A stretch of DNA of 64,000 bases from Escherichia coli (GTDB lineage: Bacteria > Pseudomonadota > Gammaproteobacteria > Enterobacterales > Enterobacteriaceae), in assembly GCF_016903815.1 (NCBI RefSeq), contig NZ_CP069973.1, one strand, 5' to 3'. The notes beneath the pieces are model-generated. The model searched no databases and was not told the origin of the DNA. It saw only the letters and a list, made by a program, of their open reading frames with translations. Both the position numbers and the translations under genes were made by a program. Within the stretch, counting starts at the first letter, position 1. Each line of letters opens with the position of its first letter. Shown piece after piece: positions 1,912 to 60,851 of the stretch.

Positions 1912-2700
1912 ATGAAAATCGGCACACAGAATCAGGCGTTCTTTCCGGAAAATATTCTGGAGAAATTTCGTTATATCAAAGAGATGGGCTTCGATGGTTT
2001 TGAGATTGACGGCAAACTTCTGGTCAACAACATCGAAGAAGTCAAAGCGGCGATCAAAGAAACCGGTTTACCGGTGACCACCGCCTGCGGCGGCTATGAC
2101 GGCTGGATTGGCGACTTTATCGAAGAGCGTCGTCTTAATGGCTTAAAGCAGATCGAACGCATTCTTGAAGCGCTGGCCGAAGTGGGCGGTAAAGGTATCG
2201 TCGTTCCGGCAGCGTGGGGCATGTTTACCTTCCGTTTACCGCCGATGGCCTCGCCGCGCAGCCTGGATGGCGACCGCAAAATGGTGAGTGATTCCCTGCG
2301 CGTACTGGAACAGGTGGCAGCGCGTACCGGAACCGTGGTGTACCTCGAACCGTTAAACCGCTATCAGGATCACATGATCAACACCCTCGCCGATGCTCGT
2401 CGTTACATCGTCGAAAACGATCTTAAACATGTACAGATTATCGGCGATTTCTATCACATGAATATCGAAGAAGATAACCTGGCGCAGGCGCTGCATGACA
2501 ACCGCGACCTGCTCGGTCATGTGCATATTGCAGATAACCATCGCTACCAGCCGGGCAGCGGCACCCTGGATTTCCACGCGCTGTTTGAACAGCTGCGCGC
2601 GGATAACTATCAGGGCTATGTGGTGTACGAAGGGCGTATCCGGGCAGAAGATCCTGCCCAGGCGTACCGTGATTCTTTGGCCTGGTTGCGTACCTGCTAA
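1912..2700 (+). CDS. ycjR: Sugar isomerase/epimerase, TIM-barrel (3-keto-D-guloside epimerase)
   Basis: The ORF is 1903..2700. I use the internal ATG giving MKIGTQNQ (262 aa), as I recall for K-12 YcjR. The 1903 start is also possible. Confidence 0.9.
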   Translation: MKIGTQNQAFFPENILEKFRYIKEMGFDGFEIDGKLLVNNIEEVKAAIKETGLPVTTACGGYDGWIGDFIEERRLNGLKQIERILEALAEVGGKGIVVPAAWGMFTFRLPPMASPRSLDGDRKMVSDSLRVLEQVAARTGTVVYLEPLNRYQDHMINTLADARRYIVENDLKHVQIIGDFYHMNIEEDNLAQALHDNRDLLGHVHIADNHRYQPGSGTLDFHALFEQLRADNYQGYVVYEGRIRAEDPAQAYRDSLAWLRTC

Positions 2701-3765: not shown

Positions 3766-6029
3766 CCAGGCCAGTAACGTTATCAGAACCCCATTTCAGC
3801 CAGCATACACTGAACAAATATGCTTCACTGATGGCGCAGGGGAACGGCTATCTTGGGCTTCGCGCCAGCCATGAAGAAGATTACACGCGCCAGACCCGTG
3901 GGATGTATCTGGCGGGGCTGTATCATCGGGCGGGTAAGGGTGAAATCAACGAACTGGTGAACCTGCCTGATGTCGTGGGGATGGAGATTGCCATAAATGG
4001 TGAGGTTTTTGCGTTATCCCGCGAAACATGGCAGCGTGAGCTTGACTTTGCCAGTGGCGAATTACGCCGCAACGTTGTCTGGTGTACCAGTAACGGCGCG
4101 CGTTACACAATCGTCAGCCGTCGCTTTGTTTCGGCAGACCAACTGCCGCTGATTGCGCTGGAAATCACTATTACTCCGCTGGACGCTGACGCGTCAGTGC
4201 TGATTTCAACAGGCATTGACGCCACGCAAACCAACCACGGACGACAACATCTCGACGAAACCCAGGTGCGGGTGTTTGGTCAGCATTTGATGCAGGGGAT
4301 CTATACCACTCAGGATGGACGCAGTGATGTGGCCATCAGCTGTTGCTGTAAGGTGAGCGGTGATGTGCAGCAATGCTATACCGCCAAAGAGCGCCGCTTG
4401 CTGCAACATACCAGTGCGCAACTTCACGCAGGCGAAACGCTGACGCTGCAAAAACTGGTGTGGTTCGACTGGCGGGACGACAGACACGTCGCTTTAGACG
4501 AGTGGGGCAGTGCATCGCTTCGTCAGCTTGAAATGTGTGTACAGCAGAGTTACGACCAACTTCTTGCAGCATCCACAGAAAACTGGCGTCAATGGTGGCA
4601 GAAACGTCGTATCACGGTAAAGAGTAACGATGAGCACAATCAGCAGGCGTTAGATTATGCGCTTTATCATCTGCGCATCATGACGCCTGCTCACGACGAG
4701 CGCAGCAGTATTGCGGCAAAAGGTTTGACCGGGGAAGGCTACAAAGGCCACGTTTTCTGGGATACAGAAGTATTTTTGCTACCGTTTCATCTGTTTAGCG
4801 ATCCGACGGTTGCCCGAAGTTTACTGCGTTATCGCTGGCACAACTTGCCAGGCGCGCAGGAGAAAGCGCGACGCAACGGCTGGCAGGGCGCGCTATTTCC
4901 GTGGGAAAGCGCGCGCAGCGGCGAAGAAGAGACGCCGGAATTTGCCGCCATTAACATTCGCACCGGGCTGCGGCAAAAAGTGGCCTCGGCGCAGGCGGAA
5001 CATCATCTGGTCGCCGATATCGCCTGGGCGGTTGTTCAATACTGGCAGACCACGGGGGATGAAAGTTTCATTGCTCATGAAGGCATGGCGCTACTTCTGG
5101 AAACTGCAAAGTTCTGGATTAGCCGCACGGTGAGGGTTAACGACCGTCTGGAAATTCATGATGTTATTGGGCCAGACGAATATACCGAACATGTCAATAA
5201 TAACGCCTTCACCAGCTATATGGCGTATTACAACGTCCAGCAGGCGCTGAACATCGCTCGTCAATTTGGCTGTAGCGACGATGCGTTTATCCATCGCGCC
5301 GAAATGTTCCTTAAAGAACTGCGGCTGCCAGAAATTCAGCCCGACGGCGTTTTGCCGCAGGATGATTCGTTTATGGCGAAACCAGCGATTAATCTGGCGA
5401 AATACAAAGCGGCGGCGGGGAAGCAAACCATTCTGCTGGATTATTCACGCGCAGAAGTGAACGAGATGCAGATCCTCAAACAAGCTGATGTGGTGATGCT
5501 CAATTACATGCTGCCGGAGCAGTACTCAGCGGCATCGTGTCTTGCCAATCTGCAATTTTATGAACCGCGCACCATTTACGACTCTTCACTGAGTAAAGCG
5601 ATCCACGACATTGTTGCCGCACGCTGTGGCCTGTTGGCGCAAAGTTATCAGTTCTGGCGGGAGGGGACTGAAATCGATCTCGGTGCTGACCCGCATAGCT
5701 GCGACGACGGTATCCATGCTGCCGCAACTGGCGCTATCTGGCTGGGGGCGATTCAGGGTTTTGCCGGGGTGAGCGTGCGTGACGGTGAATTAAATTTGAA
5801 TCCGGCGTTACCTGTGCAGTGGCAACAGTTGTCTTTCCCTCTGTTCTGGCAGGGCTGCGAATTACAGGTCACTCTCGACGCGCAGCGTATTGCGATTCGA
5901 ACTTCTGCGCCCGTTTCACTGCGTTTGAACGGGCAGCTTATATCTGTGGCTGAAGAATCTGTTTTCTGTTTGGGTGATTTTATTTTGCCCTTCAATGGGA
6001 CCGCTACCACGCATCAGGAGGATGAATGA
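3762..6029 (+). CDS. ycjT: GH65 kojibiose phosphorylase
   Basis: 755 aa, with a 4-nt overlap (ATGA) onto the ycjS stop. GH65-like sequence recognised as YcjT. Confidence 0.93.
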
Positions 6030-57464: not shown

Positions 57465-57754
57465 TGGTGGATTTACGTAAAGCGGCGCGGGGGCAGATGT
57501 GCACCGTCAGAATTCCTGGCTACTGCAATCACGATCCGGAAACGTCTGTGCTGGCGCATTACCGACTGGCGGGAACGTGCGGAACAGCGACAAAACCACA
57601 CGATATGCAGGCGGCGATTGCCTGTAGCTCATGCCACGATCTAATCGACGGGCGGGTAAAAACCAGCGATTACACCAAAGAAGAATTACGCCTGATGCAT
57701 GCAGAAGGTGTTTTTCGCACACAAGAAATCTGGAGAAAGGAGGGATATTTGTGA
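57464..57754 (+). CDS. YbcO-like (DUF1364) putative nuclease
   Basis: 96 aa, MVDLRKAARGQMCTVRIPGYCNHDPETSVLAHYRLAGTCGTATKPHDMQAAIACSSCHDLIDGR.. It is clearly homologous to DLP12 YbcO as I remember it. Confidence 0.8.
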   Translation: MVDLRKAARGQMCTVRIPGYCNHDPETSVLAHYRLAGTCGTATKPHDMQAAIACSSCHDLIDGRVKTSDYTKEELRLMHAEGVFRTQEIWRKEGYL

Positions 57755-58293
57755 TTTACCCAACGAATACAGGAAAAAGCGGAGAACACCTTCGTCTCGC
57801 CACGCTGGAAAGTGTCTGGATTCAGGGCAAACTGCGTATGTGGGGGCGCTGGTCGTATATTGGCGGTGGCAGGTCAGGAAATATGTTCAATCAGTTGTTG
57901 GCATCCAAAAAATTGACGAAAACAGCCATCAATGAAGCCCTGCGCAGAATGAAAAAAGCGGGAATAGAGAAAGCTGAGCTGGAAGCGTTTTTGCGAGAGA
58001 TGATCAACGGCAAGCAAAAGAGCTGGCTGGCGCATTGTACTGATGCAGAGGCGTTATGTATTGATCGAGTCATAAGTGAGGTGCTGGCAGAGCATCCTGG
58101 ATTGATTAGTGTCCTCCGGCAACGGTATGAAGGACGGGGGATGACTAAGCGCAAAATGGCTGAATTGCTAAATGATGCACATCCTGAGTGGTGTTTTAGC
58201 ACATGCGAAAAGCGAATTGCTAATTGGTTGGCTGTTGCTGAGTATGCCCTATATATTCCCATGCGAGAATCATTTGCTCAAAAAATAGCTTGA
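57751..58293 (+). CDS. Putative late-gene antiterminator (Q-like, DUF1133-type)
   Basis: GTG start overlapping the upstream stop (GTGA), with an AAGGAGGG SD. 180 aa. It lies directly before a promoter + terminator unit and the lysis cassette. Confidence 0.65.
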   Translation: MIYPTNTGKSGEHLRLATLESVWIQGKLRMWGRWSYIGGGRSGNMFNQLLASKKLTKTAINEALRRMKKAGIEKAELEAFLREMINGKQKSWLAHCTDAEALCIDRVISEVLAEHPGLISVLRQRYEGRGMTKRKMAELLNDAHPEWCFSTCEKRIANWLAVAEYALYIPMRESFAQKIA

Positions 58294-58318
58294 TTTTTTA
58301 CGCATAAACTGCTTCAAT
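58290..58318 (+). promoter_or_regulatory. Candidate late promoter (PR'-like)
   Basis: TTGATT-17 nt-TTCAAT, overlapping the Q-like stop codon. A -10-like TATGCT lies at 58324-58329, where lambdoid sigma-dependent pause elements sit. Confidence 0.45.
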
Positions 58319-58377
58319 TCCGGTATGCTTCGCAAAGCTGTATCGCGAGGCGAACCAAGCGCATGAACTTTACCAGA

Positions 58378-58405
58378 ACCCGCCATTGAGCGGGTTTTGT
58401 TGTTT
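58378..58405 (+). terminator. Rho-independent terminator (tR'-like)
   Basis: acccgc-cattga-gcgggt followed by tttgttgttt. Confidence 0.7.
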
Positions 58406-58477
58406 CTGGTACTGGTGAACCTGATGTTTCATTTCTGGAGCGCGATTCCTGGCGGAATACCTAGAATCGAGACATTC

Positions 58478-58486
58478 TGGTAAAAT
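58478..58486 (+). promoter_or_regulatory. Extended -10 promoter element for the moron gene
   Basis: TGgTAAAAT, 29 bp upstream of the ATG at 58515. There is no good -35. Confidence 0.4.
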
Positions 58487-58514
58487 TGTTTTCAGTACAG
58501 GATGTGGAGGTGAG

Positions 58515-59084
58515 ATGAGAGAACTACCTAAAGATTATTTTTTAGGAGTAGATGATGAGCTCGTCGATTATCTTGAAAAACAAGGGGAAGAGACGATACG
58601 AGAGATTCATCTTTCTAACAAAACCAATGTTGAGAATGGATACAAACTTCTGAACATTCAGATTGTTGGAATTGGTTCATCTTTTTTATTGCTGACACAG
58701 AAAACTAATTTCGATTTTCTCACCGCCGGAATTACCACATTTACATTACTATGGACATGGTGCGCCATTTACTTGGTATGTACTGGTTTATCTGTGAAGG
58801 TTAGGGGCCTGATCAATGCCCCTCCTGATCATCTATATCATGAAAAATATAAGGATATGGAGCCCTCGAGCTTTAAAATATTCGCTGATGCAGGATATTT
58901 AGGACCTGATAAGTTATTGCCGCTTATACGAAGGTATCGCCTTGTTGACTTGAGTGATACAGCAAGAGAGTTACTGTTGGAAAATGAGAAAATCCGCACG
59001 AGTCTCGATAAAGCAAGGATGTATACCATCCTTGCTCCGGTAGCGGCGATGTTTATCTCGGCTGTTTTTTTATATGTTCAATGA
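58515..59084 (+). CDS. Uncharacterised 189-aa membrane protein (3 predicted TM helices), a moron in the Q-holin gap
   Basis: GGAGG SD 5 nt upstream. Hydrophobic segments are LLNIQIVGIGSSFLLLT, ITTFTLLWTWCAIYLVCTGL and MYTILAPVAAMFISAVFLYV. AT-rich codon usage. I recognise no family. Confidence 0.7.
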   Translation: MRELPKDYFLGVDDELVDYLEKQGEETIREIHLSNKTNVENGYKLLNIQIVGIGSSFLLLTQKTNFDFLTAGITTFTLLWTWCAIYLVCTGLSVKVRGLINAPPDHLYHEKYKDMEPSSFKIFADAGYLGPDKLLPLIRRYRLVDLSDTARELLLENEKIRTSLDKARMYTILAPVAAMFISAVFLYVQ

Positions 59085-59214
59085 CTGAGTCGGCAGAATC
59101 TCCAACAAAAACACGACGTGTAGCAAAGTCTGTAGTACTTTGTGTTGGAGTTGGTTTTGGTGCCACGGGTTGCTGAGGTTTATTTTCACCTTGTGGTTTG
59201 TTTTTTTCAGACAT
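59053..59214 (-). CDS. Candidate 53-aa hydrophilic Pro/Lys/Gln-rich protein
   Basis: AAAGAGG SD 6 nt upstream of ATG 59214: MSEKNKPQGENKPQQPVAPKPTPTQSTTDFATRRVFVGDSADSVIEHIKKQPR. It overlaps the 3' end of 58515-59084 by 32 nt. Confidence 0.45.
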   Translation of the reverse strand: MSEKNKPQGENKPQQPVAPKPTPTQSTTDFATRRVFVGDSADSVIEHIKKQPR

Positions 59215-59308
59215 AAAAATCCTCTTTGTTTGAATTGTTACTTTTGGCGATTTAACGATATCAAACACGAGTATATACCGCCAGAAGCTTAATCTGGCAC
59301 TCCATCTG

Positions 59309-59333
59309 GCCCCGGCATGTCCCGGGGCTTTTT
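59309..59333 (+). terminator. Strong rho-independent terminator just upstream of the holin
   Basis: gccccgg-catgtc-ccggggc followed by ttttt. Confidence 0.8.
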
Positions 59334-59431
59334 CGTTGTTAGGCTCTGGAAACATCCTCGACTTCTTGTTAGCAAGCCTGAGAGCCTGAATCTTACACTT
59401 AGCACCATCCGAACTCTCGGAGGTGAGGCTT

Positions 59432-59773
59432 ATGAAAATGCACAATGCCCCTCATTCCTGGCCTGACTTACTGGAACTCTTACAAAGTTGGTGGCGTGGA
59501 GATACGCCGCTGGGTGCAGTGGTTATGTCAATTATTATGGCTGGTTTGCGCATTGCCTATTTTGGCGGTGGCGGCGGCTGGAAACGAAAAACGCTTGAGA
59601 TTCTGCTTTGTGGTGCTCTGACGCTGACCTTTGCATCCGCGCTTGAGTATGTCGGATGGCCTAAATCACTTTCTGTTGCCATTGGTGGTGGGGTGGGGCT
59701 GATTGGTGTTGATGCTATTCGTGGTGCGGCAATGAGGGTCATCGGTAACAAGTTCGGTGCCCATAAGGAGTAA
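59432..59773 (+). CDS. Class I (lambda S-like) holin with an MKM dual-start motif
   Basis: GGAGG at 59419-59423, with ATG at 59432 and 59438 (M-K-M). It has three hydrophobic helices and a charged C-terminus, and lies immediately upstream of the endolysin. Confidence 0.85.
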   Translation: MKMHNAPHSWPDLLELLQSWWRGDTPLGAVVMSIIMAGLRIAYFGGGGGWKRKTLEILLCGALTLTFASALEYVGWPKSLSVAIGGGVGLIGVDAIRGAAMRVIGNKFGAHKE

Positions 59774-60253: not shown

Positions 60254-60714
60254 GCAGAGTAACCGCGATTATCTCCGCTCTGGTTATCTGCATCGTCGTC
60301 TGCCTGTCATGGGGTGTTAATCATTACCGTGATAACGCCATCGCCTACAAAGAACAGCGCGACAAAAATGCCAGAGAACTGAAGCTGGCGAACGCGGCAA
60401 TTACTGACATGCAGATGCGTCAGCGTGATGTTGCTGCGCTCGATGCAAAATACACGAAGGAGTTAGCTGATGCGAAAGCTGAAAATGATGCTCTGCGTGA
60501 TGATGTTGCCGCTGGTCGTCGTCGGTTGCACATCAAAGCAGTCTGTCAGTCAGTGCGTGAAGCCACCACCGCCTCCGGCGTGGATAATGCAGCCTCCCCC
60601 CGACTGGCAGACACCGCTGAACGGGATTATTTCACCCTCCGGGAACGACTGGTAATGATGCAGGCCCAACTTGAAGGTGCTCAGCAATACATAACCGAGC
60701 AGTGTTTAAAGTAA
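60250..60714 (+). CDS. i-spanin Rz, full length
   Basis: 154 aa, [31 protein letters not shown]... Near-identical to lambda Rz. K-12 rzpR is only a fragment (from memory). Confidence 0.93.
60470..60655 (+). CDS. rzoR: o-spanin Rz1 lipoprotein, embedded in the +1 frame of Rz
   Basis: 61 aa with lipobox LVVVGC and a proline-rich mature part. Matches RzoR/lambda Rz1. Confidence 0.9.
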
Positions 60715-60851
60715 AATCTTAACTACAATATGATTCATTTTGATGATTGTTTCATAAGGAACAGTGAAGTAAGATCTAAGAGGAGTTAAATTTTATACAG
60801 TATAATCATAATATTGCAGCAAGGTGGTTATAATTGAAAGAATATTTAGAT

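Follow-up and report, generated by a model that had tools for sequence, protein, structure and literature searches.

What does the interval between the Q-like late antiterminator gene and the holin gene carry in the Rac-type lambdoid prophage contained in a 64,000-nucleotide (nt) stretch of Escherichia coli DNA (NCBI RefSeq assembly GCF_016903815.1, contig NZ_CP069973.1; the whole stretch is referred to here as the window), and do the two overlapping genes found there belong together? The initial annotation of the window had proposed a self-contained cargo gene for an unrecognised protein with three transmembrane segments (TMs), facing a convergent open reading frame (ORF) of 53 amino acids (aa), and each sequence feature that it described is present in the DNA at its position. 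Our comparisons show that the two genes form a mobile two-gene prophage cargo unit (the cassette). They also show that both genes are under purifying selection and are inherited together across phage backbones. The two genes are as follows:

58515-59084, + strand: ORF189, encoding a 189-aa predicted inner-membrane protein (from the ORF list; RefSeq WP_001208722, "hypothetical protein"; phrog_11870, function unknown)
59214-59053, - strand: small convergent gene, encoding a 53-aa hydrophilic protein rich in Pro, Lys and Gln and overlapping ORF189 by 32 nt (phrog_14506, function unknown)

A word-indexed search found 104 relatives of ORF189, nearly all of them 189 aa in length, in Escherichia, Klebsiella, Citrobacter, Enterobacter, Serratia, Yersinia, Providencia, Proteus, Morganella, Pantoea and Salmonella, and one extra relative in a phage deposited as Actinobacillus phage. 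A profile search run exhaustively against 1.84 billion representatives returned just 98 relatives with 160-200 aa, none with a domain fusion; two long matches in this search were repeat junk. Intact loci (101 in total, from Enterobacterales, Pasteurella and Oxalobacter-type prophages) contained an intact small ORF in 100 cases, representing 60 distinct pairs; 95 of these ORFs were picked up automatically, five more were longer versions or contained an ambiguous base, and the sole exception was frameshifted. Barring this one frameshift, no genome with only one of the two cassette genes was found among the loci examined. In the intact loci of other genera, an ORF of 41-64 aa converges on the large gene each time, usually with an overlap of 20 nt. 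A small ORF that is not conserved, which had been named beforehand as an observation that would speak against the proposal, was thus not what the data revealed.

The pair is located between an antiterminator gene and lysis genes in Serratia, Pantoea, Yersinia, Morganella, Trabulsiella and the pPE4 phage, and the antiterminators beside it represent three families (DUF1133, PF06530 and PF03589). Remote homologues (28-35% identity) have kept the small convergent partner and occupy other slots. Specifically, the pair is located downstream of a cI-like repressor gene and on the same strand in a metagenomic prophage (L022/L023) and in Pasteurella multocida (L107), which is the position of rexAB in lambda, and between a HicB/HTH (helix-turn-helix) pair and the terminase genes in Oxalobacter-type prophages (L020/L021). 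The cassette therefore uses three kinds of accessory slot (antiterminator-holin, cI-downstream and before terminase), and a constant location in the Q-to-holin slot holds for Enterobacterales and fails for the remote homologues in cI-downstream or pre-terminase positions. In two Serratia prophages (L011 and L012), a gene for a 61-aa Ogr/Delta-type zinc-finger protein (5754-5939) was observed directly upstream of the ORF189 homologue and downstream of the PF03589 antiterminator gene.

Both genes are constrained at the protein level. In the same genome pairs, the ratio of nonsynonymous to synonymous substitution rates (dN/dS) was 0.03-0.18 for the small gene (43 codons outside the overlap) and 0.06-0.11 for ORF189, which indicates purifying selection. 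Common to the small proteins are an MS-x-x-N-K start, a low-complexity centre that is rich in Pro, Gln and Lys and in which indels stay in frame, and a C-terminal motif, F-(S/T)-x-x-R-x-phi-V-G-D-S-A-(D/E), with basic residues after it. Judging from these sequence data, the convergent ORF of the initial annotation is real and protein-coding, far beyond what chance would produce, and its product, of about 50 aa, is basic and intrinsically disordered. A ribosome binding site (RBS; GAGGA) is located at 59220-59224, and the ATG at 59214 is the start that is conserved across genera. The RefSeq/PGAP version of the gene (WP_152948782, 71 aa) uses a GTG at 59268; this start is not conserved, and the upstream extension would span the promoter and hairpin region described below.

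ORF189 is preceded by a GGAGG Shine-Dalgarno sequence at 58506-58510, as the initial annotation had read it. The order predicted for its product, from the N-terminus onward, is an acidic helix, a hairpin formed by TM1 and TM2, some 75 aa in the cytoplasm and a final TM. A confident AlphaFold2 model based on a 42-sequence alignment (predicted local distance difference test score 82.7) shows three long helices (residues 14-62, 68-92 and 134-188), the membrane-distal halves of which build a helical stalk on the cytoplasmic side. The proposed three-TM architecture is borne out by these helices and by hydropathy, which is clear for TM2 and TM3; TM1 (residues 45-62, GxGSS, LLNIQIVGIGSSFLLLTQ), which is the most conserved stretch of the protein, has a weaker hydropathy signal. 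As residues 93-167 are rich in Lys and Arg, this segment was placed in the cytoplasm, which makes the order N-in, TM hairpin, cytoplasmic segment, C-terminal TM the likely topology.

No match to ORF189 was found in Pfam (E up to 1), NCBIfam, PADLOC, PDB or BFVD, and no match to the small protein in Pfam, NCBIfam, PADLOC, PDB or BFVD; PHROGs assigns each of them to a family of unknown function, ORF189 was as unrecognised in every library tried as it had been at first reading, and both protein families are uncharacterised. The best match in the PDB profile search (GpsB, E 0.11) was rejected as noise. When 74 distant relatives were scanned against Pfam, none reached the threshold, and sub-threshold matches in the TM regions were scattered over DUF2207_C, 8xMP, YLATT and Phage_holin_3_6. 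The likeness to SieB, RexB and SLATT proteins suggested previously has no counterpart in detectable homology, as RexA, RexB and SieB profiles from Pfam, NCBIfam and PADLOC did not match either cassette protein and the list of 25 Pfam families obtained with the 74 relatives at E up to 10 included no SLATT family (SLATT_1-6, DUF4231). PycTM (PF18967) did not match ORF189 of the window either; a single relative, the remote member P0129, scored at all, reaching 16.1 bits (E 0.016; cut-off 27.2 bits) across a 40-residue part of TM2, which does not reproduce its precomputed PycTM label. Neither the pyrimidine cyclase PycC nor a nucleotide-signalling enzyme (SMODS, cyclase, TIR) was found near the cassette in the loci examined, where the neighbours were phage regulatory, lysis and packaging genes only. 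A literature search by accession or PHROG identifier found no paper mentioning either protein family, and the general literature yielded the tai/ati precedent discussed below alone.

The right side of the cassette, from the ATG of the small gene to the terminator, is conserved above the level of coding DNA. The + strand of this region (59215-59335) is predicted to fold into three hairpins (-38.2 kcal/mol, z -4.2):

59222-59271, + strand: hairpin A, which contains GGCGATTTAACGATATCA (59246-59263) and lies opposite the RBS, the predicted 5' end and the extended -10 of the small gene (alignment, fold, covariation)
59280-59298, + strand: hairpin B (GCCAGA...TCTGGC; consensus fold with compensatory changes, single-sequence fold)
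59308-59334, + strand: intrinsic terminator C (59308-59329 plus T-run; terminator scan, covariation across genera)

Pairing in hairpins B and C is kept by compensatory changes. The left arm of hairpin A occurs in two registers, so that no single column structure fits it. The + strand, on which hairpin A includes 2-4 G.U pairs, was the more stable one in 35 of 36 distinct versions (mean -11.2 vs. -6.1 kcal/mol), and one stem position covaries (C-G 17, U-A 11, U.G 5 and C.A 0). As the five wobble pairs would be A.C mismatches on the minus strand, these data indicate selection on the + strand RNA of hairpin A, and the strand asymmetry ruled out hairpin A as a structure of the 5' untranslated region of the minus-strand mRNA. 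On the minus strand, the same region carries an extended -10 (TGATATCGT, 59263-59255); if transcription starts approx. 7 nt downstream of it, the loop of hairpin A would face the small mRNA at its 5' end. Mutual antisense transcripts, already pointed out for the 3' overlap, are inherent in this layout and are joined by the conserved + strand hairpin opposite the 5' end of the small gene. A search of Rfam with the hairpin region returned nothing at E up to 10.

The platform is not confined to the cassette. At least 120 IMG/VR stretches contain its core, GGCGATTTAACRATATCA (59246-59263); among the 118 examined, 59 carried the ORF189 pair, one showed a match to the small ORF only, 44 carried neither gene and 14 ended too near the core for assignment. 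A few of the 44 pair-free stretches are chance matches in coding regions of unrelated phages. In most of the 44, the core is located at the same distance from an RBS ahead of other minus-strand genes, which encode a 92-99-aa protein with a near-threshold match to GhoS, a 67-aa zinc ribbon, a DUF2441-like protein and others; in these loci (including L112, L117, L119, L138, L160, L162 and L163) what comes after the hairpin is in most cases either another hairpin with a terminator or a set of tRNA genes. The IMG/VR scan therefore ruled out the 18-nt block as a private promoter of the cassette. As other cargo uses them, the terminator and the promoter/RBS region of the small gene represent a common platform and recombination junction. 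Correspondingly, the terminator that the initial annotation had assigned to ORF189 exists, though it lies past the small gene and its promoter and is shared with other cargo types. An example is an E. coli prophage (L162/L119) with the same block, next hairpin, terminator and holin as the window and with closely related, not identical, Q and YbcO genes, in which another convergent pair takes the place of the ORF189 pair.

The genes of this other pair are located at 2075-2305 (+) and 2291-2569 (-) of the oriented sub-region in L162, and the pair was also seen in L160 and L138; a + strand ORF of 61-84 aa (MKFxEL...) overlaps the gene for the minus-strand protein of 92-99 aa (MxxFTVRVEL...), which came close to the threshold for GhoS, a type V antitoxin (PF11080; E 9e-4, 19.6 bits, cut-off 21). 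Convergent pairs may be a recurring design of the slot.

On the left side, a candidate promoter of ORF189 was located:

58472-58486, + strand: conserved ACATTcTGGTAAAAT with the -10-like TAAAAT (58481-58486), putative ORF189 promoter (sequence read, conserved hexamer)

The extended -10 noticed previously (TGGTAAAAT, 58478-58486) is part of this element. Of 57 distinct upstream regions, 45 have a hexamer TA[AG][AG]AT at a distance of 28-35 nt from the ATG (shuffled sequences: 1.4 on average, 7 at most); the hexamer is often contained in ACATTnAGGTAAAAT and usually located 35-50 nt past a terminator hairpin. No -35 was recognisable for ORF189, and a consensus promoter scan made no call there. 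Of the promoter-gene-terminator layout proposed for the gene, the sequence shows a terminator and, as a putative promoter, a conserved -10-like hexamer with no recognisable -35; neither the terminator nor the promoter region of the small gene is private. In loci without the hexamer, ORF189 would rely on read-through from the late promoter, as no -10 is available there.

The layout implies that any + strand transcript running toward S or to terminator C is antisense to the small gene, its RBS and its promoter, and, since the terminator lies beyond the small gene and its promoter, to the small gene in its entirety; terminator C would end those + strand transcripts that have not been modified by Q. 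Such transcripts would start either at the -10 before ORF189 or at the Q-modified late promoter and would carry the three conserved hairpins at their 3' end, where the loop of the first is the complement of the small mRNA at its predicted 5' end. The two products might then be made reciprocally, i.e., the small protein in the quiescent lysogen and the membrane protein once + strand transcription rises. The small, probably labile protein would restrain the membrane protein, as in a toxin-antidote or a defence/self-immunity pair; the membrane protein could target the inner membrane by permeabilisation or by a block of entry, and the prophage might benefit through exclusion or abortive infection of other phages, or through addiction.

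Our tentatively preferred reading is that the cassette may be an antagonistic pair of a predicted membrane effector and a small disordered antidote that is switched by late or own + strand transcription and serves exclusion, abortive infection or addiction; we consider it the most likely reading, though short of probable. In its favour are the co-inheritance of the two genes, which extends to the remote homologues, the selection on both, the varied backbones, the low GC content with a conserved -10-like hexamer and a conserved terminator, the membrane architecture, the + strand hairpin opposite the 5' end of the small gene and the rexAB-like position of L022/L023 and L107. Phage phi80 offers a direct precedent for reciprocal expression, since Q-driven late transcription there lowers expression of the opposite-strand immune gene tai (PMC11364771). 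The more specific proposal, in which a three-TM effector and an antidote of about 50 aa have their state set, inversely to late transcription, by a previously undescribed + strand antisense RNA platform that lambdoid prophages reuse for unrelated minus-strand cargo, is speculative and rather doubtful as a whole. Several observations weigh against an antagonistic pair. Neither cassette protein has detectable homology to a toxin, antitoxin or defence family in the libraries tried, toxin-antitoxin genes are usually co-directional, and TM1 is the weaker of the predicted TMs by hydropathy. Moreover, the putative ORF189 promoter consists of the -10-like hexamer alone, which is missing in Pantoea, Morganella and some other loci, and the antisense platform is common to unrelated cargo genes and may reflect general regulation of the slot instead of a logic specific to the pair. 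If the antagonistic reading is true, the cassette would represent a new defence or addiction module of prophages with a very small size; an antisense regulator in the form of the shared + strand hairpin, if it exists, would explain, as a general rule, how several cargo genes of the slot are silenced upon the lytic switch. The points that we consider most worthy of attention are the strict pairing of the two genes and the antisense platform as a possible general, undescribed control element of the slot.

A serious rival, to which we assign a lower though appreciable likelihood, reverses the roles, i.e., the small minus-strand protein would exert a lysogen function (inhibition of incoming phages or of a host process) and ORF189 would be a late counter-measure or self-immunity protein. 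In phage phi80, the immune gene tai is embedded in the Q-dependent late operon, beside the counter-defence gene ati, and runs against the direction of the operon; it is expressed in the lysogen, and its level drops when Q is supplied (He et al., Nat Commun 2024, PMC11364771). The cassette resembles this system in that an opposite-strand accessory gene with a sense-strand partner lies in a Q-dependent late operon (PMC11364771). By analogy, lysogen expression may fall to the minus-strand gene and late expression to the + strand gene, which would partly reverse the roles assumed in the initial annotation. The layout fits the noncontiguous operon of tai and ati, the small gene uses the expression platform that is common to the minus-strand cargo of the slot, and the small protein is the slower-evolving of the two (dN 0.10-0.14 vs. 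0.18-0.20 for ORF189 in the same pairs). In addition, ORF189 in Pantoea and Morganella lacks a -10 and comes right after a terminator, and would therefore be Q-dependent there. Conversely, a disordered peptide of about 50 aa would be an unusual defence effector, the -10-like element before ORF189 is kept in most loci, and in the cI-downstream slots (L022, L107) it is ORF189 that occupies the lysogenic strand. The two systems also differ in composition (Tai is a soluble 26-kDa protein, unrelated to the three-TM protein and the 53-aa peptide of the cassette), in position (upstream of the packaging genes in phi80 as compared to between Q and S) and in arrangement (the cassette genes converge and overlap); antagonism is known in phi80 and predicted for the cassette.

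We regard as unlikely, and as less so than the explanations that follow, that the cassette serves lysogenic conversion toward the host or the environment, with a membrane protein that alters envelope physiology or stress tolerance and a small protein that regulates it. The occurrence of stx and further host-directed cargo in the same slot counts in favour of this explanation, as do the presence of trkG, a host-type transporter gene, as cargo close by in this prophage and the failure to find a defence signature. The slot is the one that stx occupies in Stx phages, and its cargo is therefore massively switched on at induction. The cassette and stx share the location downstream of PR'/tR' and upstream of S, and late co-transcription after Q action; the cargo is unrelated, and the cassette adds an opposite-strand gene and the antisense RNA platform. 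Against conversion, ORF189 has no signal peptide, enzyme domain or transporter fold, being mostly cytoplasmic apart from its membrane helices, and strict pairing with a tiny antagonist-like gene is atypical of conversion genes.

It seems improbable that ORF189 is a lysis accessory, i.e., a late inner-membrane tuner of holin timing (an antiholin or pro-holin) with the small gene as its restraint, even though in Enterobacterales it is always immediately 5' of the holin gene and within the Q-dependent transcript, and its small membrane helices with a Gly/Ser-rich TM1 would suit such a role. The lysis genes beside the pair vary (holins of PF05106 or PF04971; endolysins of PF00959, GH19 or the peptidase type), so that the adjoining holins and endolysins are unrelated to each other, and related phages with the same holin do without ORF189. 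No match to holin families was found for ORF189 in Pfam or PHROGs, the sub-threshold match to Phage_holin_3_6 being limited to three of the 74 relatives. An obligatory linkage to endolysin genes is not observed either, as the remote homologues are located far from lysis genes. Overall, the varied backbones and the non-lysis slots favour a self-contained function and disfavour a dedicated role in lysis. That the two genes are unrelated neighbours, with the small ORF or its antisense RNA alone as a separate element, we consider very improbable, since, even though the promoter/RBS platform of the small gene serves other, unrelated genes, the small gene is found beside ORF189 in virtually all intact loci, among them remote ones without the platform, is under selection at the protein level and belongs to a family that a profile search recovered as hypothetical proteins only, all in ORF189-carrying taxa.

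Comparison of the antagonistic reading with known systems yielded partial parallels. With regard to the noncontiguous operon, a concept reportedly due to Saenz-Lahoya (2019), the cassette shows an embedded opposite-strand gene with overlapping transcripts, as the small gene lies between tR' and S and is crossed by the late transcript. Like RexA/RexB of lambda, it is a two-gene prophage accessory unit with an inner-membrane component, and L022 and L107 share the cI-downstream position; however, RexB has four TMs, RexA is a cytoplasmic sensor of 279 aa, the rex genes are co-directional, and no sequence similarity to the cassette was found. The sieB gene of P22, reportedly described by Ranade and Poteete (1993) as a membrane-associated exclusion gene switched by the antisense RNA sas from the same locus, is comparable in combining a membrane-associated prophage exclusion gene with a within-locus antisense RNA; esc, on the other hand, is an internal start of sieB and not a separate convergent gene, and the cassette gave no match to SieB in Pfam. 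In IS10, the stem-loop antisense RNA-OUT has a loop complementary to the 5' end/RBS region of the opposing mRNA, RNA-IN. The loop of hairpin A and the predicted 5' end of the small mRNA are arranged alike (the cassette transcript ends are predictions), although there is no sequence relation and the antisense RNA of the cassette would be the 3' end of longer + strand transcripts; a dedicated promoter for a short antisense RNA was not found at the cassette. Type I toxin-antitoxin (TA) systems of Bacillus subtilis prophages (txpA/RatA, bsrG/SR4) likewise consist of convergent units with a 3' overlap and a membrane-acting product on one strand; their toxins are hydrophobic and <60 aa and their antitoxins are non-coding RNAs, whereas the cassette combines a 189-aa protein with a coding opposing gene and therefore lacks both the small hydrophobic toxin and the non-coding antitoxin RNA of this class. 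As judged from these comparisons, the layout would work like a noncontiguous operon and the composition recalls RexAB/SieB-type exclusion and 3'-overlapping type I TA systems, while tests of sequence and composition do not place the cassette in these families.

The slot is bordered, and its left end occupied, by the following elements:

57751-58293, + strand: late antiterminator Q-like gene, left slot border (PF06576 DUF1133, E 1.4e-107; weak match to PF06530 Phage_antitermQ; PHROG 753, "anti-termination protein Q-like")
58374-58399, + strand: tR'-like intrinsic terminator, part of the phage backbone and not of the cassette (terminator scan; cassette-free Rac-type prophages similar until approx. 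58408-58418)
59432-59773, + strand: lambda-family holin gene S, right slot border (PF05106, E 1.9e-27; similarity to other prophages back from approx. 59418)

The gene order of the prophage is DUF1367, YbcO nuclease, Q-like, tR', ORF189, convergent small ORF, terminator, holin S, R, Rz and trkG. When compared to related Rac-type prophages, similarity on the Q side stops at approx. 58408-58418 and resumes on the holin side at approx. 59418, and the interval holds tRNA genes, other genes or another convergent pair. For example, one prophage with the same Q as the window (L025) carries tRNA-Thr/Gly genes and a different lysis cassette, and another with the same holin (L026) differs in both Q and cargo. 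The proposal of self-contained cargo in the Q-to-holin slot is thus upheld, given that relatives with the same Q/tR' or the same holin have other contents. The proposed AT-richness was confirmed as well (GC content of 0.37-0.43 as compared to 0.48-0.53 in the flanks). The cassette therefore has the structure of a moron in the Juhala/Hendrix sense, i.e., extra DNA in a differently filled interval with a deviating base composition and its own terminator (59308-59329), though this terminator is common to other cargo types of the slot. At least 80% of the region 58300-59430 was found in 222 of 5426 complete E. coli genomes; the cassette is thus carried by approx. 4% of these genomes, as well as by many other Enterobacterales, yet both proteins are unannotated. 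The flanks alone are present in many further E. coli genomes. In strain 7/2 the cassette region is 100% identical, and both ORFs are annotated as hypothetical proteins.

In E. coli 2015-01-2097 (L024), which has the same Q, a deletion extends from just inside the TGGTAAAAT element (equivalent to 58482 of the window) into Rz, and the cassette, S and R are gone; the Rac prophage of K-12 is likewise without its lysis genes, which is comparable to this deletion. The sole match to a consensus sigma-70 promoter within 58200-59500 is located at 58228-58257 on the + strand (TTGGCT-18-TATATT), inside the 3' end of the Q gene, and could be the PR'-like late promoter, which the initial annotation had put slightly further downstream. 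The holin begins with MKM (ATG at 59432, followed by Lys and Met) and has an in-frame GTG at 59423; the MKM start is the dual-start arrangement of lambda S107/S105. The potassium transporter gene trkG (60834-62309), a classic cargo gene of Rac prophages, is located 3' of Rz, and its 5' region is very AT-rich (GC content of approx. 0.29 at 60700-60999). Finally, a 61-aa ORF (60470-60655, + strand) is nested in Rz in another frame, and, as its N-terminus resembles a lipoprotein signal, it looks like an Rz1-type o-spanin gene.

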